Shown: positions 3,510 through 19,375, counted from the first letter of the stretch. The stretch is DNA of 20,000 nt from an uncultured virus (IMG/VR IMGVR_UViG_3300025605_000006) (IMGVR_UViG_3300025605_000006), one strand, 5' to 3'. Program-made: numbers and translations. The notes: a model not told the origin generated them from the letters alone.

Positions 3510-3619
3510 GACTCCAAAGGCTGGACGCTCGGACTTGCGGACTCTCGGACTCTCGGACTTGCGAGAAAAACTTCAAGAAACCCCTTGACAATCGCAGCAA
3601 TCCACGGTAAGGTACACAC

Positions 3620-4792: not shown

Positions 4793-4915
4793 TTGACAGG
4801 ACCGGACAAGTGTGCTAGGTGTCCGGTCCCCATAGGACCTCCTTGAGGCTAGGTTGTTTCACCTAATCTCAAGAAACCACTTGACACACCCGCCCGACGG
4901 AGGTAAGGTGAACAC

Positions 4916-5119
4916 GTGAGCACGACACGTCAAGCCGTCAACAACGCGATCCTCCGACTGGAGCACACCCTTGACGCCCTCGGGGTGCAGCTAGTGGAGT
5001 TTCACACAGAGGATGGTAACCAGTGGTCAGAGATCTACCACGCCCTCCGAGACATCACCTACCGGATCGAGAACCTCTCCAGCCGGATGCTCGATATGGA
5101 AGACGAGCAGCAGGAGTGA
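4916..5119 (+). CDS. helical hypothetical protein, 67 aa
   Basis: TTGACA 4881-17-TAAGGT, GTG 6 nt later. Confidence 0.75.
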   Translation: MSTTRQAVNNAILRLEHTLDALGVQLVEFHTEDGNQWSEIYHALRDITYRIENLSSRMLDMEDEQQE

Positions 5120-5189
5120 GGGGGGCCGGGCGTCCAGTCCGAATGGGACAGGATGCTTGACAAGTGAAGATCCCTCGTGTAATGTGGGC

Positions 5190-5392
5190 ATCAATATTAT
5201 ATTGAGCCCTCCCGCAAAAGTGGGGAGGGGACGGCATGGCGTTAGGTGTCATGCGCCTCTGAAGTGGCGAGAACTTCCCCTAGGGGTCTCAGTTTCTGTT
5301 CGCAGAACCTGAGACCCCTTGATCGAGGGTGGCGGTACCCTGGTGCAACTGTCGGGGGGTGGCAAGTTCGAGGCCCCCACCTGGCCGGAGGA
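5190..5392 (+). ncRNA. candidate structured ncRNA 1 (chain of hairpins)
   Basis: TTGACA 5157-17-TAATGT with no start codon at +1; consecutive hairpins including AGGGGTCTCAGTTTCTG-TTCG-CAGAACCTGAGACCCCT. Confidence 0.5.
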
Positions 5393-5442
5393 CTGACAAC
5401 CTGACACCTTCATAGAGTGATGCTGTCCGGAAGGTAGACTGA

Positions 5443-5628
5443 GTGACGGTGGACGCACACTCTTACCGGGTCCGTTTCCAGGACGGGAGAGAGGTGTCCT
5501 TCGGGACGGACTATCTGTCCGCTGTCCGGTTCGTTTGGACTGTGCGGGGCACACTGTCGGAGTTCGACGAGGACGGGTGCCTGGTCGCTTCCTACGACTA
5601 CAGTGTCAGTCCTCTCCCCCTAGGATGA
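5443..5628 (+). CDS. hypothetical protein, 61 aa
   Basis: GTG with GGAAGG upstream; protein-like sequence. Confidence 0.45.
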   Translation: MTVDAHSYRVRFQDGREVSFGTDYLSAVRFVWTVRGTLSEFDEDGCLVASYDYSVSPLPLG

Positions 5629-5758
5629 CGACCACCGGCTCGTCGGGGTCGGTATTGGGGATGGGGATGTTGCCTTCCAGTTCGGTCAGCATGGCGGTCA
5701 TCTCCGGGGTGATGTCGTCGCAGCGGTCGACGTGGTCGAAGTGGTCTGTGTTCTGCAT
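5606..5758 (-). CDS. acidic 50-aa protein (MQNTDHFDHVDRCDD...)
   Basis: minus TTGACA 5794-5789, TTCAAT -10, leaderless ATG 5758. Confidence 0.65.
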   Translation of the reverse strand: MQNTDHFDHVDRCDDITPEMTAMLTELEGNIPIPNTDPDEPVVVILGGED

Positions 5759-5856
5759 GTGTCTATTGAACATCATGGTGGGGGAGCGTGTCAAGTGGGG
5801 TTTTTAGGTGATATAACCCACTTGACAGGAGTTGCTCATCTAGTATCATGGGGCAC

Positions 5857-5994
5857 ATGAAGAAGCGAAGCCCCGCCCGCGAGACGCCCCGATCCACGGG
5901 CAACATGCTGCGTATCAATCAGCGTGCTCACACGTTCAAGGATCGGAAGAAGGACGCGAGCCGCAAGGCTTGCCGAGGAAAGGTGTACGCATGA
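5857..5994 (+). CDS. basic 45-aa protein MKKRSPARETPRSTGNMLRINQRAHTFKDRKKDASRKACRGKVYA
   Basis: TTGACA 5822/TATCAT 5844 then ATG; close paralog at 11546-11671. Confidence 0.8.
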   Translation: MKKRSPARETPRSTGNMLRINQRAHTFKDRKKDASRKACRGKVYA

Positions 5995-6155
5995 CCGCCA
6001 GCAACGAGCGAGGCAAGAAGATGGGCAACTCCCGCAGCCTGGGGCTCTGCTCCTACGGGTGCTGTCGAGGAACCCGCACGGGAAGCAAGGCCCGAACCCG
6101 CAAGATCCTCCGGGCCCGCGAGAAGCGAGCCTGGCAGAAGCAGGCCAACGCCTGA
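5991..6155 (+). CDS. basic Cys-containing 54-aa protein
   Basis: ATGA overlap with previous gene; CSYGCC and RAREKRAW. Confidence 0.7.
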   Translation: MTASNERGKKMGNSRSLGLCSYGCCRGTRTGSKARTRKILRAREKRAWQKQANA

Positions 6156-6241
6156 AGGAATCTCGAAAAACCCCTTGACAAGGGGTGACACCCTCCCCCA
6201 TACTGAACACACACCACAAAGCACTCAGGAGGTGCCACGAA

Positions 6242-6406
6242 ATGACCATCATGTGGGATGACCCCGAACTTGACGACATGGCCGACGAGATCGCCATGCT
6301 GGAAGCGGGCCTCGACATCGACCCCGACGACCTACTTGACATGGAGATGGAAGCCCGACTGCGCGAGCGGCCGCACGGCTTCACCGACGAAGGGGAGGGG
6401 TGGTGA
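6242..6406 (+). CDS. very acidic 54-aa protein (MTIMWDDPELDDMADE...)
   Basis: promoter TTGACA 6175, SD AGGAGG 6227-6232, ATG 6242. Confidence 0.75.
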   Translation: MTIMWDDPELDDMADEIAMLEAGLDIDPDDLLDMEMEARLRERPHGFTDEGEGW

Positions 6407-6456
6407 CACCCCAAACCACCTTGACAACCGACGCCCACCTGTGGCACAATGACCAC

Positions 6457-6477
6457 ATGAACAAGGAGACCAAGTGA
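6457..6477 (+). CDS. leaderless 6-aa uORF MNKETK coupled to next gene
   Basis: TTGACA 6421-18-CACAAT, ATG 6 nt later; stop overlaps GTG start (GTGA); contains AAGGAG. Confidence 0.5.
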   Translation: MNKETK

Positions 6478-6686
6478 GACACGCGAGAATCAGCATCGAC
6501 CTGACGGAAGCCTGGGAGTCCTGGGACGTGCTCATCACTGACCCGGACGCCCCGGAGGACGTCACCTCCGAGTGGATGGAAGCAAACCCCGACGGGTGGG
6601 AGCTGCACGACATCCGAGACAGCGGCAGCAACGGGTGGAGCGACCTCGAAGTGGACGACTACGATCCCCGAGAGGTGGCATCATGA
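6474..6686 (+). CDS. acidic Trp-rich protein, 70 aa
   Basis: SD AAGGAG, GTG start, D/E/W-rich. Confidence 0.7.
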   Translation: MRHARISIDLTEAWESWDVLITDPDAPEDVTSEWMEANPDGWELHDIRDSGSNGWSDLEVDDYDPREVAS

Positions 6687-6913
6687 GGCTGGAAGGATGG
6701 GAAGGTGGGCGACTTGGGGAAACCATCGCCCTAACCGTCCTGGCACTAATCCTCGTCGCACCGATCGTCCTGATTGTGGTCCTGGCACTCGCCACCACAG
6801 GATGCCCCTGGTACCTGTGGGCAGCCCTAGCCGTCCTACTGAACGTCCTTTGGCTCAAAACCTTCTTCAGGTTCGACATTGAGTGGCACGACAAAAACGA
6901 CGAAACCTCTTGA
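6683..6913 (+). CDS. small two-TM membrane protein, 76 aa
   Basis: ATGA overlap with previous stop; two long hydrophobic segments. Confidence 0.7.
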   Translation: MRLEGWEGGRLGETIALTVLALILVAPIVLIVVLALATTGCPWYLWAALAVLLNVLWLKTFFRFDIEWHDKNDETS

Positions 6914-6945
6914 CAGGCACCCTCATGTTGGCGTAACATGACCAC

Positions 6946-7464
6946 ATGAGCAAGGCACCAGCCATAATCGTGGATCGGGACGGGACGCTAGCCTCGGTGG
7001 CACACGTCGCCCCCACCACAAGGGACCGGGACGCATGGAGAGAATACAACGCTGCTCTCCCATTCGACGCCCCAGTCCCCAACGTGGTCAACATGCTCAA
7101 CTGGGCACGCAGGACGCTCCCGGACGTCACGATCATCATGACATCGGGGCGGGCAGCGGGAGACTTCCCCGGAGATATCCGCAGGAAGCGCCACATGGAA
7201 GGGTGGATAGCGAAACACCGACTCCCCATAGACGTCCTTCACATGAGGGAGGGGGGGGACCAGCGTAGAGACTCCATCGTCAAAGCTGAGATGTTCCACT
7301 CCTTCATTGCTGACAAGTTCGACGTCCTCCTAGTCATAGACGACAGACCACAAGTCTGTGACCTGTGGAGAGACCTTGGACTTCCCCTCATCCAAGTGAA
7401 GGATCCGGGGATTCTTCCACCAATCGCAGAAATGTCTCGACAAGCGGCAACGGTAGCCCTATAG
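6946..7464 (+). CDS. HAD-superfamily phosphatase, similar to the 3'-phosphatase domain of T4 polynucleotide kinase (PseT)
   Basis: IIVDRDGTLA (DxDGT), TSGR, MREGGDQRRDSIVK, VIDDRPQV..LWR.LGL; leaderless promoter TTGACA 6910. Confidence 0.85.
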   Translation: MSKAPAIIVDRDGTLASVAHVAPTTRDRDAWREYNAALPFDAPVPNVVNMLNWARRTLPDVTIIMTSGRAAGDFPGDIRRKRHMEGWIAKHRLPIDVLHMREGGDQRRDSIVKAEMFHSFIADKFDVLLVIDDRPQVCDLWRDLGLPLIQVKDPGILPPIAEMSRQAATVAL

Positions 7465-7472
7465 TTACATAC

Positions 7473-7631
7473 ATGGAAACCAACACCGAGACCGAGACCG
7501 AAACCCTGTTCTGCGAGGGGTGCCAGGAGTACGTCGAAGTCACCCTTGGTGAGGACTTCCTCACCTACACCGACCCCGGCAGCGGAGAGGACTTCGGGTT
7601 CTGCCTCGACTGCCTGGAGCCGCCCGAGTGA
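7473..7631 (+). CDS. acidic Zn-ribbon microprotein, 52 aa
   Basis: TCGACA 7437-17-TATAGT, ATG 7473; CEGC...CLDC. Confidence 0.7.
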   Translation: METNTETETETLFCEGCQEYVEVTLGEDFLTYTDPGSGEDFGFCLDCLEPPE

Positions 7632-7815
7632 TCGAGAGCCCCTGCCTGCGGGTGGGGGCCACGGTCGTCCGTCCCACGACTAGGACATCCGTCCGGTCCT
7701 CAGGGACTTTTAGTCCGTCCCACGACTAGTTCGTCCCCCTGAAAATCTTGAAAAACTTCGAGAAACCCCTTGACTTCCCTTCCTCAGTGCCTTATATTGA
7801 ACTTGTAAGCAAGCA

Positions 7816-7877
7816 GCCGGAGAAATGGAAGGGCCAACCTGTAGAGAGGCTCTAGCAGTTCGATTCTGCTCCCGGCA
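7816..7877 (+). ncRNA. tRNA-like small RNA lacking a D-arm
   Basis: promoter TTGACT 7770-17-TATATT; GCCGG/CCGGC acceptor-like stem, canonical T-arm AGCAG-TTCGATT-CTGCT, central stem AGGGCC/GGCTCT; no encoded CCA. Confidence 0.55.
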
Positions 7878-8172
7878 CGTACTGTAACCCCTATAGCACC
7901 GTCACCCTCCTGCCGGGGTGCGTGACTTTGGACGGGCTGGGGCACTTGGCAGGGGCATGTTAGGGACGTCTAACATGTCGGACCAGCCTCCGGACCGTAC
8001 AGGTTCGGAGGCAGTCCGTTTTAGGGGGACTGGAGGACTTTCGGACTGGAGGACACTCGGACTGTCGGACTGTTGTGTCGTCCGGTCCGGTCGGGTGGGG
8101 GGCTGTGGGTTCACCCGAAGAAATCCAAGAAAAGGCTTGACATCCCCTCACTATCCATGGCATCATACTGGC

Positions 8173-8634
8173 ATGAACCCGAGCGACACCGATACCGTCA
8201 CCATCCGAGCGACATTCGACGCCTACGAGTGGGTCGACATCTGCACCTTCTGTGGATCCGAGAACATCTCGGAGCCTCGGGCAGGCACCGGCAAGGTGAC
8301 CTGCGAGAAGTGTGGGGGATGCGCCCTTCCTGACACGCACGACATCCCGCTGGAAGCTAACGGGTGGGTCGACCCGATGAACCCATGGGGCTCCTTGGAG
8401 CAGGATGGGTATGACGACTCCCGCGAGCCTGACTCGATCACGCTTCCTTTCGTGGAGGCCCTGGGGTTTCTTCTCGACTTCCCTGGGGGAGTGTGGGGCG
8501 TCACGGACTGCGAGGCTTCCACTGACTGGCGTACCGGCCGCTCCAAGCGTGTTACCGCCCACGTCGACGGTGACCCCAAGGTGGTCGACTTGCTGCTGCT
8601 GGCTTTCTGGGAGGTTTCCGAGCGGGTCGCCTAG
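8173..8634 (+). CDS. Zn-ribbon-containing hypothetical protein, 153 aa
   Basis: TTGACA 8137, CATCAT -10, ATG 8173; CTFC...CEKC. Confidence 0.75.
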   Translation: MNPSDTDTVTIRATFDAYEWVDICTFCGSENISEPRAGTGKVTCEKCGGCALPDTHDIPLEANGWVDPMNPWGSLEQDGYDDSREPDSITLPFVEALGFLLDFPGGVWGVTDCEASTDWRTGRSKRVTAHVDGDPKVVDLLLLAFWEVSERVA

Positions 8635-8844
8635 GGGCACCGGGGGGGGTGAGGCTCGCCCTTCCCCTCCGCTGGGGCAGGCACTCCAGCAGGGGGGGGA
8701 CGTGGGTTCTCGGGACTTTAGAAAGTCCGGACTTACCTCGTTCTTAGCTTATTGGACTGGGACCTGTCCGGTCCTGGTGTCCGGTCCTGGTGTCCGCACC
8801 CCGGACTCCCGATGTTAGGTTGCCCTAACATGGGGTGTGTGGCA

Positions 8845-9162
8845 TCACGACCACACTATGTCTCGGCCGTGGGCCTCCGCCCATCGGGCTGCGCTCAGGA
8901 GACTGGCAGCGCGGAGCTGCCAGTACCCCTCTATGGCATGGATGGGGGCGACCGCGTCCATGGCAGCCGCCCGTACCATGATGTCATCCGATGCCAGGAT
9001 GATGGTCGCTGGCACCTCGGATCCTGTCGGCTCGAATGGAACCTCAAGGATCTGCTCGAACATCGTTCGAGCGTTCCTGTTGTTCAGGTCGATGATGAGC
9101 CCTTCATCCCAGAGGTGGTCGAACTCATCGGCCCGGTAGGTGGGGGTGATCTGTGTTCCCAT
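8845..9162 (-). CDS. hypothetical protein, 105 aa (MGTQITPTY...)
   Basis: minus TTGACC-17-TATCTT, leaderless ATG 9162. Confidence 0.75.
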   Translation of the reverse strand: MGTQITPTYRADEFDHLWDEGLIIDLNNRNARTMFEQILEVPFEPTGSEVPATIILASDDIMVRAAAMDAVAPIHAIEGYWQLRAASLLSAARWAEAHGRDIVWS

Positions 9163-9363
9163 GCCATGAAGATACAGCACCTCACTAGAGCGGTCAAGTA
9201 GGCAAGATATCCCAATTTTGGGGCTTGTGTTGCGTTGTGAGGTTTGCTACCTTCTATGTCACCTTTCTCTCGTTAGGGGGGCTTCTAGGGGCCTCTCAGA
9301 GGATCCGAAGAAATCCGAAGAAATCGCTTGACCCCCACCACAACAAGGAGTACCGTTAGACAC

Positions 9364-9492
9364 ATGAACACCGAACACAACGGCCCCAAGCGGGGGCGAG
9401 GCTACTGGGGGCGGAAGGCAGAAGCCAAGGCCGTCAGCAAGCGTCAGCGTCGGATCAACGACCGCAAGGCCTGCAAGGAGGACCGCGACTGA
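9364..9492 (+). CDS. basic 42-aa protein MNTEHNGPKRGRGYWGRKAEAKAVSKRQRRINDRKACKEDRD
   Basis: TTGACC 9328-17-TACCGT, ATG 7 nt later. Confidence 0.75.
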   Translation: MNTEHNGPKRGRGYWGRKAEAKAVSKRQRRINDRKACKEDRD

Positions 9493-9671
9493 AGGAACCG
9501 GACACCACAAGAGAGGGAAGGGGGGTCCACCCCCCCCGACCCCGGACCGGACCCGGACCCGGACGTCCGAAGGGGACGTCCAGCCAAAAGGGGAGGGCTG
9601 TCCTGCGGACGTCCAGTTGTCCGTCCCGCGGACAGGACATGGGAACCCCCCTCCGGGGGGTTTCCATCCTT

Positions 9672-9872
9672 TCAGTAGTAGTCATCCTGTCGGGCGAGGC
9701 AGTTATCCACCATGGCCTCCTCCTCCCGACTGATGCAGGCGGGGCAGTACGCTTGTCGCTCATCCGGGCCATCCTCGCGGGAGCCGAGGAACATGAGGAT
9801 AGATTCCATCTCATCCTCCGGGGCAAGCTCCCCGCAGGAATCGCACTCGATGAGGTCGTCGTTGTTGTTCAT
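9672..9872 (-). CDS. acidic Zn-finger microprotein, 66 aa
   Basis: minus TTGACA 9907-17-CATCAT; CDSC...CPAC. Confidence 0.75.
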   Translation of the reverse strand: MNNNDDLIECDSCGELAPEDEMESILMFLGSREDGPDERQAYCPACISREEEAMVDNCLARQDDYY

Positions 9873-9938
9873 ACCCTAATGATGGGGCATGACGTTAGGA
9901 ATGTCAAGTAGAAATCCGAAGAAATCCGAAAAAGTTTG

Positions 9939-9958
9939 GATCGAACGAGTGTTCGATC
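9939..9958. promoter_or_regulatory. consensus actinobacterial LexA SOS box
   Basis: GA-TCGAAC-GAGT-GTTCGA-TC. Confidence 0.7.
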
Positions 9959-10080
9959 GGACGGCCCCTAGCAGGTCCTCGGCCAGGAGTCAAATCGGAC
10001 GGCCCCTAGCAGGTCCTCGGCCAGGAGTCAAATCGGACGGCCCCTAGCAGGTCCTCGGCCAGGAGTCAAATCGGACGGCC
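9956..10080. repeat. 38-bp tandem repeat, 3.3 copies
   Basis: unit ATCGGACGGCCCCTAGCAGGTCCTCGGCCAGGAGTCAA at 9956, 9994, 10032, partial 10070. Confidence 0.95.
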
Positions 10081-10082
10081 GA

Positions 10083-10098
10083 TCGAACACCTGTTCGT
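10083..10098. promoter_or_regulatory. LexA SOS-box-like site
   Basis: TCGAAC-ACCT-GTTCGT. Confidence 0.65.
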
Positions 10099-10160
10099 AG
10101 GCAAGACATCCCAAAGGTGGAGGCTTGACTCCCCTATGGGGGTGCTGTAACGTTACGGGT

Positions 10161-10366
10161 GTCGACAGGGAATCCCCCACTAGTGCGGGGGCTGGAGACT
10201 TGAGGGGTACTAGAGCCGCAGGGGCGGGCTATCAGCGCCCATAGGGGAGACACCGAAGTTCCCCACAAAAATGGCCGAGGTGGAGATAGCATCCCACCGC
10301 AGGAAAACGAGCCGGGCGCAGAGCAGCCAGCAACCGGAGCCAAGGTCTAACATCCCCCCGTCGAAC
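10161..10366 (+). ncRNA. candidate structured ncRNA 2 (multi-way junction with pseudoknot)
   Basis: TTGACT 10125-17-TAACGT, no ATG at +1; closing TCGAC/GTCGA; several GC hairpins; loop CTAGTGC complementary to GTACTAG 10207-10213. Confidence 0.55.
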
Positions 10367-10473
10367 GAGCTACCGGGCAGGGGGGCAGGGAGGGAGGCAG
10401 ACCCCCCCAACTTTCTCGAAAAAAAATCGGGAAAGGGGTTGACACCTCCAACCTTGCTAGGTATAGTGAAGAT

Positions 10474-10891
10474 ATCAAGAACGCCGGGGGTCACTGCCGA
10501 AAGGTAATCCCGGCCCCGAAAGCCCCACCGGGAAACAAGGGGATCCGGGGGGAGGGTAACCTCCCCCCACTAGCAACTTTACAACTGAATCTTGGAGGAA
10601 ACCTCGAACCTGTGAGGAACCATCTGGGGCGGGCAAGCTTGACCGCCACCCGACGCGAGAGCGTAGGAGTAACCCGATGAATCACCCCCTGACGACTAAC
10701 GACCACGACCATCGCCCTGGCAGCGGTGGCGATTCCTGAATGAAGGGGTGGGGAGGGCGAAAGACAAGGTGAGAGAAACAGGAGAACGGGACCCGCTCAA
10801 ACTGAGAGTAACCGGGGAGTGCGCACAATCCGGGGAGGGTAGGGGAGAGAGGGACCCGGTCGAGGTTTCCTCCAAGATTCGGTTGTAAAGT
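10474..10891 (+). ncRNA. candidate structured ncRNA 3: GNRA-hairpin leader plus 252-nt domain closed by a 32-bp stem
   Basis: TTGACA 10439-17-TATAGT, +1 is ATC; GAAA/GTAA/GAGA tetraloop hairpins; inverted repeat 10576-10607/10860-10891 with one U-G pair. Confidence 0.6.
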
Positions 10892-11134
10892 CCTTGACAG
10901 GACGCCAGGACAGTGCAACAATGAAGGACACCAAGAGGGGACGAGAGAACTTGTCTCGAAGTCCTTTTAGGACAGGACAAACGGGGGGAAAGATGTCCGT
11001 CCCCGGACCCGGACGTCCGCTCCGGACGTGGTGTCCCGTCCTCCATGTCCGTCCCAGGACTAGGACGTAGGTGGGGGCTGTGTCCGTCACTCCTAGCGGA
11101 CTTCACTCCACCGCAGGGGCGAAGTCCGTTACGA

Positions 11135-11443
11135 TCATGGGGCGGGAAACAGCTCCGGGAAGCAGTGAGGGCACCGCCAGCGGAGAGCCGGATCGAGCCA
11201 GACGAGCGGGTTGCCGTGGTGTCCGCAGCGAGGTGCGTAGGCGTTCGGGGTGTCCGGGGACGGGTCCGCGTACAGGCCGACGTTGTCCGTCCGGTCCTCC
11301 CCTCGGAGAAACCATGTGATGACGGTGTCCGCTGGGAACTGGGAGAGGAAGTCGATGACGTCCTCGCAGGTCAGCTGATGTCCGGTGGGGAGGTAGTCGG
11401 TGTATTCGACTCCCCCGTAGGTGTGTGCTGCGGTATCTGCCAT
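11135..11443 (-). CDS. hypothetical protein with C-terminal Zn-finger-like motif, 102 aa
   Basis: minus TTGACA 11478-17-TAAAGT, leaderless; CGHH...WRCPHC. Confidence 0.75.
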   Translation of the reverse strand: MADTAAHTYGGVEYTDYLPTGHQLTCEDVIDFLSQFPADTVITWFLRGEDRTDNVGLYADPSPDTPNAYAPRCGHHGNPLVWLDPALRWRCPHCFPELFPAP

Positions 11444-11545
11444 GCCCTTACTTTAGGGTATGTGGCTCCGATTGTCAAGGGGTTTTTTGAGAAATGTCCA
11501 GTCCTGGGGACGGACGTTGGACCCGCCTGGTCTGGTCCGGGGTGG

Positions 11546-11671
11546 TCAGTAGCGGACCTTTCCGCGGCAGGCCTTCCGGTTGGACTCCTTTTTGCGGTCC
11601 TTGAAGGTGTGTGCCCGCTGATTGACTCGCAGCATGTTGCCGGTTGCTCGGGGTGTCTGGTACTTGCTCAT
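11546..11671 (-). CDS. basic 41-aa protein MSKYQTPRATGNMLRVNQRAHTFKDRKKESNRKACRGKVRY
   Basis: minus TTGACA 11707, CACAAT; paralog of 5857-5994. Confidence 0.8.
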   Translation of the reverse strand: MSKYQTPRATGNMLRVNQRAHTFKDRKKESNRKACRGKVRY

Positions 11672-11771
11672 GTATGGATTGTGGCATGAGGGCGGGCTAC
11701 TTGTCAACTAGGTTGTATCACCTAAACAAAAGGTGTTGACAAGGGGTGAGGGGTGGAGTATCTTCTACTAC

Positions 11772-12038
11772 ATGAACACCGATGAGATCACCGCAGTCGT
11801 GCACCAGTGCACCACCAACGACCGCAACGGAAACCCGCGACGGGTCTACGTTGCACTCAATGAGTGCGGCCATATCCTTGGCACCGAGGACGAGGGCTAC
11901 GCTGGTACCCCTCAGTGGCTCCGCGACCTTCACGACCGGGGAGTCTGGGAGTTGAGAGTGGAGGTGACCCCCGCTCAGTACCGTCGAATGGTCAAGCTGG
12001 GGGACCAGCTGAGGGAGGTCATGGAAGCTCTCCCCTGA
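11772..12038 (+). CDS. hypothetical protein, 88 aa (NDRNGNPRRVY motif)
   Basis: TTGACA 11736-17-TATCTT, ATG 11772. Confidence 0.8.
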   Translation: MNTDEITAVVHQCTTNDRNGNPRRVYVALNECGHILGTEDEGYAGTPQWLRDLHDRGVWELRVEVTPAQYRRMVKLGDQLREVMEALP

Positions 12039-12091
12039 ACTTTTCTCGAAAACTACTTGACATCCCCGGAGAGGGATTGTAGAGTAGTGAA

Positions 12092-12260
12092 GTCAAAGCG
12101 GTTCACCGCTTCAAAAACCCAACCGTAGGGGATTCTGCGGAGGCTGCCCGGAGCGAAAGAACCGGGACGGGGCCTGGGCTCCGACAGGGTGACACGTATC
12201 GCACCCCCCAGGAATCTAGTTCGCCAGGACCTCCCGCAGGACACAACTTGCGGGGAGTCC
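12092..12260 (+). ncRNA. candidate structured ncRNA 4 (three-way junction plus 3' hairpin)
   Basis: TTGACA 12057-17-TAGAGT, +1 is GTC; stems AAGCGG/CCGCTT, GATTC/GAATC, CGGAG/CTCCG, CCCGG/CCGGG, GGGTG/CACCC. Confidence 0.5.
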
Positions 12261-12438
12261 GCTGTCCGGCCCTAGAAAAGTCCTTGACATTCCGCGCAGT
12301 CCATGCGAAAATGAGGACGATGAAGAAGGTGGATGTCCCCACGGACGTCCCTAGGGACAGGACAGTCCAGTCCGGTTGGATTCTCTGTCCGTCCCACCGG
12401 ACTGGACGTAGGACCCCGGAGGGTCCAGGGGGGGGCTG

Positions 12439-12732
12439 TCAGTCCTCCAGGGTGGCAGCCAAGGCAGCCAGCTTCAGCTTCCACGAGTCCCTCACTGCCC
12501 GCTCGGTGTCCTCGTCGGGAGTGACGTCGTCCAGTTCGCTGCGGAGGGATCCGACAAGGTGTCGGTCCCACTCCCCGGAGGTCATGGGTTCACCGTCCCA
12601 CCATCGGGGGGCTGAGGTCCCCTGCGAGAGGCCCCCTGTGGAGGCCACAGCGTACAGCATGGAAGCCTGTCCTCCGTGCCATCCGACCGCTAGGTCCCGT
12701 TCCTGTTCGGTTGCCGTGTAGATCGTTGCCAT
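12439..12732 (-). CDS. hypothetical protein, 97 aa (WHGGQASMLYAVASTG motif)
   Basis: minus TTGACA 12767-17-TATCTT, leaderless. Confidence 0.8.
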   Translation of the reverse strand: MATIYTATEQERDLAVGWHGGQASMLYAVASTGGLSQGTSAPRWWDGEPMTSGEWDRHLVGSLRSELDDVTPDEDTERAVRDSWKLKLAALAATLED

Positions 12733-12949: not shown

Positions 12950-12972
12950 CTAAACCTCTAGTTGAGGTTGAC
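12950..12972. promoter_or_regulatory. MerR/FtsR-like palindrome (further copies at 14942, 15597, 15671, 15787, 18504 and in the terminal repeat)
   Basis: CTAAACCTC-TAGTT-GAGGTTGAC; consensus CTCAACCTC-N5-GAGGTTGAG. Confidence 0.6.
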
Positions 12973-14748: not shown

Positions 14749-15025
14749 CCCCGGACCGTAAGACCCCCCCAAGGGGGGGGGCAGGTCCCGTGTCCGTCCC
14801 AAGAAAAGTCCTTGACAGGCAGAACTGTCCCTGCCACAATAAGGACAGAGGGGGAGAGAGGGCAGTCCCAGCGGACTGTCCGGTCCCAGGGACTATTCGT
14901 CCCGTCCCGTCCGTAAAGGACTGCTCGTCCGCTATCGGACCCTCAACCTAAGGTTGAGGTTTAGAGTCGAGAAAGTTTCAGAAAACCCCTTGACAAGGTT
15001 GGCGGGGGGCTGTATCTTCCTACAC

Positions 15026-15473: not shown

Positions 15474-15856
15474 ACAAAGTCCGGTCCCAAGGGACAGGAC
15501 CTTGCAGTAAAGCAAGTTCTATAAATCCCTAAAAATGAACTCGAACCATTGACAGGACCAGGACATCCAGTCATCATGAGCCGTCCGCCACCCGGACCAA
15601 CCCTCAAGTAGAGGTTGAGACCGGACGGGACGTCCAGCTAGGGTCCAGCGTCCGGTCCCAGGACAAGGACCCAACCCTCAAGTAGAGGTTGAGAGTTGAA
15701 CCGGGACAGGTCCGCTCTTAGACTGTTTCCGTCCAAGGGACTCGGACGTCCACTCGGGTCCTGTAGTCCAAGAAGGGGACAGGACTCTCAACCTCAAGTA
15801 AAGGTTTAGAGTCCTGTCCGTCCCTGGACTAGGTCAAGCGGGGGGACTGAGGGGGC

Positions 15857-16207
15857 TCAAGGAACGATGAAGTCCTCCAGCCCAACCCTTGACACTCGAT
15901 AGGCACTGTTGAGAAGTCGGGACTTGAGGATGTAATCCGCCCCAACGGGGTTCGCAGTATGAGCGAAGATGCACCCGATGTCCAGAGGGTCCTCGAAAAA
16001 CACTTTCTCCTCCAAGAAGTCCACTACTGGACGTATCGTGTCCTCTCCTCCGAGGTCGTGATCCAAATAGAGGGCATCCCAGGACTTCTGGACTTCTGGA
16101 CTCTCGGACTGGAGGACTTGAAGGGCGTCCTTCGATGTGCGAACATGGTGGACGTCGTGGCCAGGCTTGACCAAAGTCCGCTCGTCGTCTATCACCAAGA
16201 TCCTCAT
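15857..16207 (-). CDS. cyclic-phosphate-processing receiver-like domain protein, 116 aa
   Basis: MRILVIDDER, LYLDHDLG, HTANPVG motifs; minus TTGACG 16243 promoter. Confidence 0.75.
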   Translation of the reverse strand: MRILVIDDERTLVKPGHDVHHVRTSKDALQVLQSESPEVQKSWDALYLDHDLGGEDTIRPVVDFLEEKVFFEDPLDIGCIFAHTANPVGADYILKSRLLNSAYRVSRVGLEDFIVP

Positions 16208-16882: not shown

Positions 16883-16918
16883 ACCTGAGAGACCGAACAG
16901 GTGTTCGGTCTCCCAGGT
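16883..16918. terminator. hairpin after minus-strand gene with an embedded SOS box
   Basis: ACCTG-AGAGACCGAAC-AGGT-GTTCGGTCTCC-CAGGT. Confidence 0.5.
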
Positions 16919-17139: not shown

Positions 17140-17187
17140 ACGAACAGGTGTTCGATTGTCGGGCGGGTCGGACGAACATTTGTTCGG
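17140..17187. promoter_or_regulatory. pair of LexA SOS-box-like sites
   Basis: ACGAAC-AGGT-GTTCGA and ACGAAC-ATTT-GTTCGG between divergent promoters. Confidence 0.65.
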
Positions 17188-18416: not shown

Positions 18417-18625
18417 GTGAACCTAGGACCGGAGACCACCTAGAGTGGTCCTATGTCCGAGTCCCCAGGACGCATCCACTGTCCGGTCCCTAAGGACAGG
18501 ACTCTCAACCTCAAGTAAAGGTTTAGGGTCCACCCCGGACGTCCTCGCAGCCCGCCACAGTCCCCGTCCAACTAGGTGAAACATTCTGCTTGACAGGACG
18601 GAGCGTCCCATGGTTAGATGTGTGC

Positions 18626-19375
18626 ATGGAAACGACAGCCACCCAGACAATCGACAAGGCCGAGGCTGGACCCCTCAAGTTCTGGGTCGTCGGTGGGGCC
18701 GTCCGTGACGGCATCCTCGGGACCACAGTCAAGGACGTGGACTTCGCTGTGGAAGCTCCGTCCTTCACTGCGATGGTCGAGGGACTGGAGGGACTTGGCT
18801 TCAAGATATTCCAAGTCCGCGAGTCCTTCCTGACAGTTCGGGCGGGGGTCCCCAACGGACACGCTCTCCGCAAGGTCACCAAGGACGCTGATTTTGTGAT
18901 GTGTCGTGCCGATGGTCCTTCGACCGATGGGCGACGACCGGACTTTGTCACCCCCGGTACCATCCTTGACGATCTGAAGCGTAGGGACTTCACTGTGAAC
19001 GCCATGGCCCAGGACCCGGACGGTGGGCTGCTGGACCCCCATGGGGGACTGAAGGATCTTCGATCAAGGACCCTGAGGTTCGTCGGGGACCCCATGGAAC
19101 GCATCACCGAGGACGGGCTGAGGGTCCTCCGAGGCTTTCGCTTTATGGTCACAAAGACCATGACCCCGGACCCCGCCACGGACGCCGCGCTGCGCTCTGA
19201 GGTTGCTGCCGAGATGCTGGCAACGATCCCAGTCGAAAGGGTCCGCGAGGAAGTCCTCAAGATGTTCGAGGGGGACCCCGTTGCTCCCATGACTCTCATA
19301 GCAGGACTTCCCTCAAGGACCCAGGACGCCATCTTTCGGGATGGGCTGAGGTTGACCCCTAGCCTCAAGCAGTGA
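18626..19375 (+). CDS. cca: class II tRNA nucleotidyltransferase (CCA-adding/poly(A) polymerase family), short 249-aa form
   Basis: VVGGAVRD...KDVDF, RRDFTVNAMA, DPHGG, EDGLRVLRGFRF, ERVREE; promoter TTGACA 18590. Confidence 0.9.
   Translation: METTATQTIDKAEAGPLKFWVVGGAVRDGILGTTVKDVDFAVEAPSFTAMVEGLEGLGFKIFQVRESFLTVRAGVPNGHALRKVTKDADFVMCRADGPSTDGRRPDFVTPGTILDDLKRRDFTVNAMAQDPDGGLLDPHGGLKDLRSRTLRFVGDPMERITEDGLRVLRGFRFMVTKTMTPDPATDAALRSEVAAEMLATIPVERVREEVLKMFEGDPVAPMTLIAGLPSRTQDAIFRDGLRLTPSLKQ

Follow-up and report, generated by a model that had tools for sequence, protein, structure and literature searches.

A candidate tRNA-like non-coding RNA beside a PNKP-type phosphatase gene, among five promoters without a leaderless gene in an uncultured virus

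Non-coding RNAs of phages are far less charted than phage proteins. Among the closest described systems are species 1 and 2 (bands C and D) of phage T4, reportedly tRNA-like non-coding RNAs of unknown role that are encoded in the tRNA cluster; they are said to be matured by the tRNA-processing machinery, in a phage that reportedly also carries tRNAs and RNA-repair enzymes. Another point of reference is the long helices that serve as RNase III processing stalks, as in rRNA precursors and at sites in the T7 early transcript. A 20,000-nucleotide stretch of DNA from an uncultured virus (IMG/VR IMGVR_UViG_3300025605_000006), here called the window, contains five promoters, at positions 5157, 7770, 10125, 10439 and 12057, which a first-pass annotation interpreted as firing into structured non-coding RNAs, a possible small-RNA arsenal of decoys for defence nucleases or binders of RNA polymerase or the ribosome. 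The units behind these promoters are denoted R1 to R5, in this order. Judged by sequence comparison, R2 makes a good candidate for a phage non-coding RNA that is new, has a tRNA-like head and is linked to the gene of a PNKP-type phosphatase. The explanation that, as a whole, appears probable is that R2 is a genuine non-coding RNA with a structure, from a family not described before, R1 a gene leader, R4 a transcript with a single helix, and R3 and R5 plain non-coding transcripts, all within the early, host-takeover-type part of a ~150-kb phage that infects an actinobacterium in activated sludge.

Two relatives bear on R2. The nearest record, G001, is an IMG/VR contig of 148.5 kb (completeness estimate 92%) that aligns with the window in a patchy, mosaic fashion at 90-100% identity. 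The other, L020, is a metagenome contig of 1,918 nucleotides that was retrieved with a PNKP alignment; its promoter style and motifs are like those of the window, and its PNKP is 73% identical to that of the window. PNKP homologues at 66-77% identity number 19, most of them from Logan assemblies. In L020, a promoter and an RNA homologous to R2 are located directly downstream of the PNKP gene, in the same position as R2, which closely follows the phosphatase gene in two diverged phages. The predicted R2 transcript, about 220 nucleotides long in the window and about 300 in the sister genomes, would begin with an 11-nucleotide leader and a tRNA-like acceptor/T-arm module, continue with another hairpin domain and additional hairpins, and end in an intrinsic terminator (Table 1). 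At the position of the D arm, the module has a single strand bearing GG, and its central arm is built in two steps, with a 6-nucleotide purine loop above an internal loop. R2 has its own promoter, no coding frame and its own predicted terminator, as would be expected of an independent small-RNA gene; no frame of the L020 R2 region has a coding-like G+C content at third codon positions (GC3, 0.59-0.70 vs 0.80 for PNKP). The 11-pair terminator stem is the longest among the terminator-like sites between 4800 and 12500; in R3, R4 and R5, only hairpins without T-runs are seen.

The pairing of R2 appears to be conserved between the window and L020. RNAalifold recovers the acceptor stem, the T arm, the central arm and the second hairpin domain, with 14 of the 63 pairs compensated; the terminator was missed because the folded input ended at window position 8000, without the 3' arm. 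In a hand-drawn structure of 33 pairs over 151 columns, 97% of the cells are paired and 10 pairs are changed on both sides, compared to 0-1 such changes in six slid controls, and only one of 500 shuffles reaches this number. The T stem stays paired through two double changes in L020. At the position of hairpin 3, L020 has a hairpin of the same dimensions (8 bp, 6-nucleotide loop) and a different sequence, as paired manually (in the automatic alignment this hairpin is out of register, and most of its pairs are counted as broken in L020), and a manual reading likewise finds a hairpin of different sequence at the position of the terminator. At 7979/7980, the window lacks an 84-nucleotide element that is present in both G001 and L020, where 53 nucleotides match at 87% identity (E 4e-13). 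R2 is the one site in the window at which a T arm adjoins an acceptor-like stem, the background being 15 non-tRNA sites in 4.08 Mb of strand-bases (unrelated phage loci, annotated tRNAs excluded). Of the five units, R2 alone shows covariation of the kind that the first-pass annotation had asked for, as seen between two distinct sequences.

Several observations weigh against so firm a view of R2. The covariation comes from two distinct sequences only, and the scored structure leans towards pairing because it was chosen after both had been viewed. The acceptor stem has just 5-6 clean pairs; taken by itself, the tRNA-like part does not exceed shuffled sequence in stability (150-nucleotide stretch 7801-7950, z +1.47; z-scores throughout are relative to dinucleotide shuffles); and ARAGORN detects the module only in its relaxed mitochondrial mode, as D-armless with a short loop. 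An R2 covariance model run over 1.10 Mb of PNKP-flanking phage loci and the window scored its training sequences only, the weak matches being one of 17 bits in locus L117 (E 0.05) and one of 12 bits in locus L014 (E 0.94), the latter inside an annotated tRNA-Tyr. Patterns of R2 blocks gave no matches in three IMG/VR scans and two scans of bacterial genomes. Finally, the R1 and R2 loci are dispensable at least in part, since each of them has a deletion that distinguishes the window from G001.

Assignment of R2 to a known tRNA-like class was rejected in each case. As a tRNA (RF00005), it has neither a D arm nor a 7-nucleotide anticodon loop and stays below the gathering cut-off: the best Rfam match of the 111-nucleotide R2 stretch is tRNA-Sec, with 14.2 bits vs a gathering score of 47, and at E<=1 the window has no tRNA match. 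With ARAGORN, neither a tRNA nor a transfer-messenger RNA (tmRNA) is found in the window, R2 gives no call in the standard or intron mode, and no G001 locus has a tmRNA; there is no Rfam match to tmRNA either. A bacterial Y-like RNA (YrlA) likewise has no Rfam match, and the TROVE (Ro60) domain is absent from G001 while the controls score; RtcB is absent from G001 as well. None of the 36 tRNAs of G001 is close enough to be the parent of R2. Rfam searches of the whole window, of 7790-7900, of 10100-10960 and of L020 in E-value mode, and of all of G001 in gathering mode, returned nothing relevant to any of the five units, in agreement with the original impression that these do not belong to known families.

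The protein complement suggests how such an RNA might be used. The window encodes an ArdC-like protein, the PNKP-type phosphatase, a cyclic-phosphate receiver domain (cREC) and a tRNA nucleotidyltransferase, the last three of which bear out the annotated presence of RNA end-processing enzymes; G001 encodes 36 tRNAs in an array and a class-A RNase P RNA. The tRNA-like head could be recognized by RNase P, the RNA of which is encoded in the sister genome, and by the phage CCA-adding-type enzyme, and these would trim and stabilize the R2 RNA. A role in the contest between phage and host over tRNA damage and repair might follow, with the RNA serving as a mimic or sponge towards proteins that hold on to the elbow or acceptor of tRNA. 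A conserved tRNA-like RNA next to a gene for RNA repair would offer a concrete candidate, open to testing, for a counter to tRNA-targeting defence that is based on RNA. A much bolder version, which we regard as a long shot, is that R2 is the founder of a class of phage RNAs that mimic the tRNA elbow and acceptor, are expressed early from a host-type promoter and are tied to PNKP; these would absorb or divert host proteins that attack tRNAs, such as toxins and nucleases that bind the acceptor end or the elbow, the phage RNase P RNA, CCA-type enzyme and PNKP would keep R2 and the phage tRNAs intact, and R4, held by its stalk, would be a further weapon made of RNA, a purine-rich sponge resembling Shine-Dalgarno sequences, to the benefit of the leaderless mRNAs of the phage.

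The promoters themselves are as described in the first-pass annotation. All five share the consensus and are among the 31 sites in the window that match the strict pattern TTGAC-N17-19-TANNNT (0.57 expected; the maximum in 200 shuffles is 3); a looser script gives 43 sites. At 21 of the 31 strict sites, ATG or GTG follows 5-8 nucleotides past the -10 element and opens an open reading frame (ORF) of 32-284 codons, which indicates leaderless mRNAs. Nearly every small gene of the region is preceded by a host-type promoter of its own, with a leaderless mRNA as the predicted transcript. None of the five flagged promoters is followed by a leaderless ATG, as had been claimed, but five is an undercount because other promoters are also without a leaderless ORF: the 10 strict sites of this kind include, besides the flagged ones, 12791, 12968, 13090, 16453 and 16669, and the looser sites 10894, 12284, 14812 and 15549 likewise lack a convincing one. 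A stricter two-hexamer scan of 4800-12500 yields 17 sites (1.8 expected), among them 7770, 10439 and 12057. The promoters at 5157 and 10125, whose -10 hexamers match TATAAT at just three of six positions, are not in this set; promoters of real genes, such as those at 3585 and 4881, are equally weak. A distinct promoter subclass has GTCC abutting the -35 element on its upstream side, while its spacer and start site bear GGAC or GTCC (10894, 12284, 14812, 16669 and 17233 in the window; conserved in L020 at 245 and 1744). Most promoters of this subclass fire into gene-free stretches rich in GGAC/GTCC, and two are antisense towards converging genes.

By composition, the five regions are non-coding. 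The accepted genes have a mean G+C content of 0.48 at second codon positions (GC2) and a mean GC3 of 0.75 (gene composition table of 32 rows, three of them mis-framed), compared to a GC3 of 0.46-0.69 for all frames in the five regions; the GC2 of these frames is 0.54-0.74, the exceptions being two frames, one of 16 codons behind 7770 (0.38) and one of 47 codons in R4 (0.49). None of the 10 conceptual translations has a Pfam match at E<=0.1. Thus, the statement that no convincing ORF follows these promoters is upheld. Frames that start from the ATC or GTC found in place of ATG stay open for 39, 68 and 209 codons, and these would be natural relics if most of the units were debris, i.e., promoters left behind after small-gene cassettes were deleted or decayed, along with terminator and spacer DNA. 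In this view, the promoters would be the sole part that still seems functional. However, equally long open frames occur at 39%, 21% and 2% of all window positions, respectively, and the GC3 of these frames is not coding-like; hidden genes with ATC or GTC starts were rejected on the same grounds and for want of a Pfam match.

The unit R1 is, by comparison with G001, the leader of a gene that has lost its start in the window. G001 aligns with the window up to 5321 and resumes at 5325, with 145 additional bases in between; these bring in a Shine-Dalgarno-like site as well as the beginning of a 69-codon ORF with a GC3 of 0.78. The leader itself differs between the two by two bases and one indel, and the longer form is also found in contigs from sequencing runs X15 and X17. 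The promoter at 5157 would therefore be the source of a folded leader of ~130 nucleotides for a small Shine-Dalgarno gene that was beheaded by a 145-bp deletion in the window. This deletion and that of 84 nucleotides inside R2 are also what accumulation of debris would produce. Against such an origin of R2, its pairing is kept through 10 double changes relative to a phage with a PNKP only 73% identical, which is unexpected of debris, and we consider decay to be an unlikely account of most of the units.

The dense base-pairing that had been noted behind each promoter is a property of some units only. R1, R2 and R4 as a whole fold clearly better than shuffles, R5 is borderline, and R3 and the interior of R4 are indistinguishable from them (Table 1), a result that the annotation had itself named as counting against its proposal. 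In sliding folds of 150 nucleotides, the flagged regions are unremarkable (z +1.5 to -2.9), the strongest windows being intergenic terminator hairpins. Hairpins of at least 4 bp with GNRA or UUCG loops, said to occur in every unit, number five in the 1,475 nucleotides of the flagged regions vs 1.4 per kb elsewhere, a mild enrichment; four of these are in the R4 unit and one is behind 5157, with none behind 7770, 10125 or 12057. Contigs from RNA libraries (X17, X19, X18, X15) are sparse, of low cover, without ends and possibly contain DNA, and so are uninformative on ends, strand and level: the gap in X17 cover over 10-12 kb carries no evidential weight, and X18, a run that is probably DNA, gives one 222-nucleotide contig that spans 10163-10381.

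For R1, R3, R4 and R5, the only relative compared is G001, at 98-100% identity. When compared by blastn with 80 metagenome loci, the five regions matched only themselves. R3, R4 and R5 are 99-100% identical to G001, whereas some nearby genes differ by up to 20%; near-identity of this order carries no comparative information on these three units. The same figures have some appeal for the proposal that all five units are independent functional small RNAs forming an arsenal of decoys or binders, as do the consensus promoters, the lack of coding signal at all five, the conservation and structure of R2 and the heavy investment of the phage in RNA (36 tRNAs, RNase P RNA and RNA-end enzymes). However, the identity to G001 is a mosaic along the window, so that near-identity is no sign of constraint; in G001, R1 leads into a gene; the folding of R3 and of the R4 interior does not differ from that of shuffles, and that of R5 is borderline; and no antisense target of at least 15 nucleotides with a significant E-value is found in the phage genome. 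Thus, the promoters, the missing genes and one good candidate for a new RNA survive from the original proposal, with R4 as a further candidate, and an arsenal of five appears improbable.

R3 and R4 are located within a 1.2-kb gene-free stretch, 9908-11134. The fold of R3 (z -1.0), which is no better than that of shuffles, speaks against a structured RNA. In R4, the two 32-nucleotide arms of an inverted repeat have a single mismatch, which is a U-G pair on the plus strand, and the fold signal is owed to this one repeat, because the purine-rich interior of 253 nucleotides folds like shuffles, again an unfavourable point; the minus strand of R4 has a z of -3.63. Both length differences between R4 and G001 are 2-nucleotide indels, one of them in a hairpin loop, which fits non-coding sequence. 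The promoter at 10439 would give rise to a non-coding transcript in which the sole robust feature is a 32-bp helix enclosing ~250 nucleotides; by analogy, this helix may be a processing stalk for a double-strand-specific RNase. R4 may accordingly be viewed as an RNA candidate defined mainly by one long helix, and the promoters at 10125 and 12057 would yield short non-coding transcripts with no demonstrable special structure. The idea that R4 is a Shine-Dalgarno sponge was rejected: there is a 2.4-fold enrichment, but it is tied with other bins. At 10677-10739, the R4 interior has a 20-codon frame behind a good Shine-Dalgarno-like site, with a GC3 of 0.67 and unchanged in G001. Such a frame, seen by eye together with a degenerate promoter-like site (TTGACC, poor -10), and the random-like folding of this interior and of the whole of R3 could be taken as marks of a decayed cassette; a perfect 32-bp helix with a U-G pair, however, is unlikely to persist without selection.

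The same stretch could instead act at the DNA level, as a transcription-primed replication origin or a regulatory hub, with the transcripts being a means rather than the product. It contains a 38-bp tandem repeat between two perfect palindromes, three promoters in series and the 32-bp inverted repeat, lies in the most purine-rich 2-kb bin of G001 (0.57), and has three of the six G-quadruplex motifs of the window, all on the non-template strand. The R-loop-primed origins of ColE1 and T4 have comparable features. However, the GC skew carries no origin signal and rises across the whole genome, no gene for a replication initiator is found beside the stretch, and the repeat is apparently single-copy in G001 (judging from alignment offsets) and hence not a fixed set of iterons; we therefore hold a DNA-level role to be rather remote. 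In the window as a whole, all six G-quadruplex motifs are on the plus strand and none on the minus strand: 10375-10394, 10530-10556 and 10832-10853 in the R3/R4 stretch, and 3226, 8624 and 8692 elsewhere.

Returning to the reading preferred here, i.e., one structured RNA, one leader, one single-helix transcript and two plain transcripts, its setting is a window with a G+C content of ~60%. In G001, 65 of the 84 promoter sites fall within the last 38 kb, which places the window in an early-type region. The G001 portal protein is nearest to the portals of Gordonia, Brevibacterium and Streptomyces phages (39-45% identity), which fits an actinobacterial host and leaderless translation. Leaderless translation is reported to be common in mycobacteria (PMC4633059, PMC3898074). 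DNA of the phage is present in activated-sludge and wastewater runs from 12 studies. Cultured phages gave no match, either by blastn with 5000-12500 or by tblastn with two proteins encoded nearby, and IMG/VR searches with a single PNKP protein and with the portal gave nothing useful; a search of IMG/VR with a PNKP alignment finds nearest records that are 61-62% identical and lack the promoter architecture. The bacterial class-A RNase P RNA of G001 lies outside the window, inside the 36-tRNA array (locus L014, 14950-15297; 124 bits vs a cut-off of 100); none of the literature matches listed concerns an RNase P RNA encoded by a phage.

Several other motifs and small genes were observed. Perfect CGAAC-N4-GTTCG palindromes occur at 9942-9955, 10084-10097 (28 nucleotides upstream of promoter R3), 16894-16907, 17141-17154 and 17173-17186, i.e., five perfect copies, or seven with one mismatch allowed, vs 0.79 expected. 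They sit between divergent promoters, one is also present in L020, and they resemble the actinobacterial LexA box. Two intergenic motifs are strand-biased, GTCCGGTCC with 14 of 16 copies and GTCCGTCCC with 11 of 14 copies on the plus strand (e.g., 4282, 7691, 8766, 8779, 12905, 14878, 15650 and 16733); these are reminiscent of oriented repressor sites, which are known as "stoperators", or of RNA-level signals. A short palindromic motif of the CTCAACCT..AGGTTGAG type is found between genes at 14950-14965, 15600-15620, 15790-15812 and 12950-12967, and in L020 at 350-365 and 1855-1885. Three small, very basic proteins of 41-45 amino acids are encoded at 5857-5994 (+), 9364-9492 (+) and 11546-11671 (-). 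The 45-residue (5857-5994) and 41-residue (11546-11671) proteins have a long conserved core in common, and the 42-residue one (9364-9492) shares only a short DRKAC block; a PHROGs search of the three gave no match, and they may be RNA or ribosome binders. A 52-codon gene for a protein with paired cysteines (7437-7631, ATG at 7473) is served by a separate promoter, which lies within the 3' end of the PNKP gene; this small gene is absent at that place in L020.

Table 1. Features of the window discussed in the text (z, folding z-score)
Feature	Position	Strand	Details
Promoter R1	5157..5191	+	TTGACA, 17-nt spacer, TAATGT; ATC at the expected leaderless-ATG position
R1 folded leader	5192..5321	+	several hairpins, including a 10-bp stem at ~5284-5319
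R1 fold	5192-5442		z -3.77
3' remnant of 69-codon gene with Shine-Dalgarno site	5325..5396	+	intact in G001
PNKP-type phosphatase	6946-7464
Promoter R2	7770..7804	+	TTGACT, 17-nt spacer, TATATT; A-rich upstream element; promoter at same place in L020
R2 fold	7805-8110		z -4.61
R2 fold, shorter stretch	7805-8040		z -2.56
R2 tRNA-like module	7816..7876	+	5-bp acceptor-like stem; 5-bp T arm with TTCGATT loop
R2 domain 2	7882..7952	+	long irregular hairpin; 18 pairs scored, 5 changed on both sides in L020
R2 hairpin 3	7957..7978	+	8-bp stem, 6-nt loop
R2 terminator	7986..8023	+	11-bp stem, 5-nt loop, T-run
Tandem repeat, 38 bp x3.3	9956-10080		perfect copies; flanked by two CGAAC-N4-GTTCG palindromes
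Promoter R3	10125..10158	+	TTGACT, 17-nt spacer, TAACGT; no A-rich upstream element
R3 non-coding stretch	10159..10438	+	fold no better than shuffles; C-run/G-run/C-run alternative hairpins at 3' end
R3 fold	10159-10425		z -1.00; 30/200 shuffles as good
Promoter R4	10439..10473	+	TTGACA, 17-nt spacer, TATAGT; 11/12 consensus matches
R4 5' domain	10474..10575	+	three hairpins, two with GNRA loops
R4 fold	10474-10893		z -4.38
R4 inverted-repeat unit	10576..10891	+	32-nt arms 10576-10607 and 10860-10891
R4 interior fold	10606-10858		z +0.09
Promoter R5	12057..12091	+	TTGACA, 17-nt spacer, TAGAGT
R5 non-coding stretch	12092..12283	+	several hairpins, including a 12-position stem at ~12226-12259; fold support borderline
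R5 fold	12092-12275		z -1.97; 9/200 shuffles as good
Cyclic-phosphate receiver domain (cREC)	15857-16207	-
tRNA nucleotidyltransferase	18590-19375

Actinobacterial phages in which each small gene has a promoter offer handy ground for finding phage RNAs, and the present case indicates that the lack of an ATG behind a promoter is insufficient evidence of an RNA gene: among the five units, one is a leader exposed by a deletion, and two have no or borderline fold excess over shuffles. In relation to known systems, R1 resembles the leader RNAs, or 5' untranslated regions, of bacterial Shine-Dalgarno genes in having ~130 folded nucleotides downstream of the promoter, followed in G001 by an ORF that has a ribosome-binding site; it differs in matching no riboswitch or leader family and in leading, in the window, into a gene remnant. 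R4 is similar to RNase III processing stalks in its long helix with one wobble pair and in its arms ~250 nucleotides apart that enclose an interior; unlike in those, the enclosed part is unstructured, and the repeat, known here from sequence alone, could form on either strand or in DNA.

R2 shares with tRNA (RF00005) and with the tRNA-like domains of tmRNA and YrlA the 5-bp T arm with a TTCGAWT loop, the acceptor-like stem next to it and, in the strand found in place of the D arm, a conserved GG, but it falls below all Rfam cut-offs, and G001 possesses neither Ro60/TROVE nor RtcB. A parallel is offered by species 1 and 2 of T4, which, like R2, are reportedly tRNA-like non-coding RNAs of a phage that also carries tRNAs and RNA-repair enzymes. 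Judged by layout, R2 is set apart from these small stable RNAs in that it lies outside the tRNA array (the G001 tRNAs are ~80 kb away), has its own host-type promoter and terminator, dispenses with the D arm and the 7-nucleotide anticodon loop, and possesses a second conserved domain.

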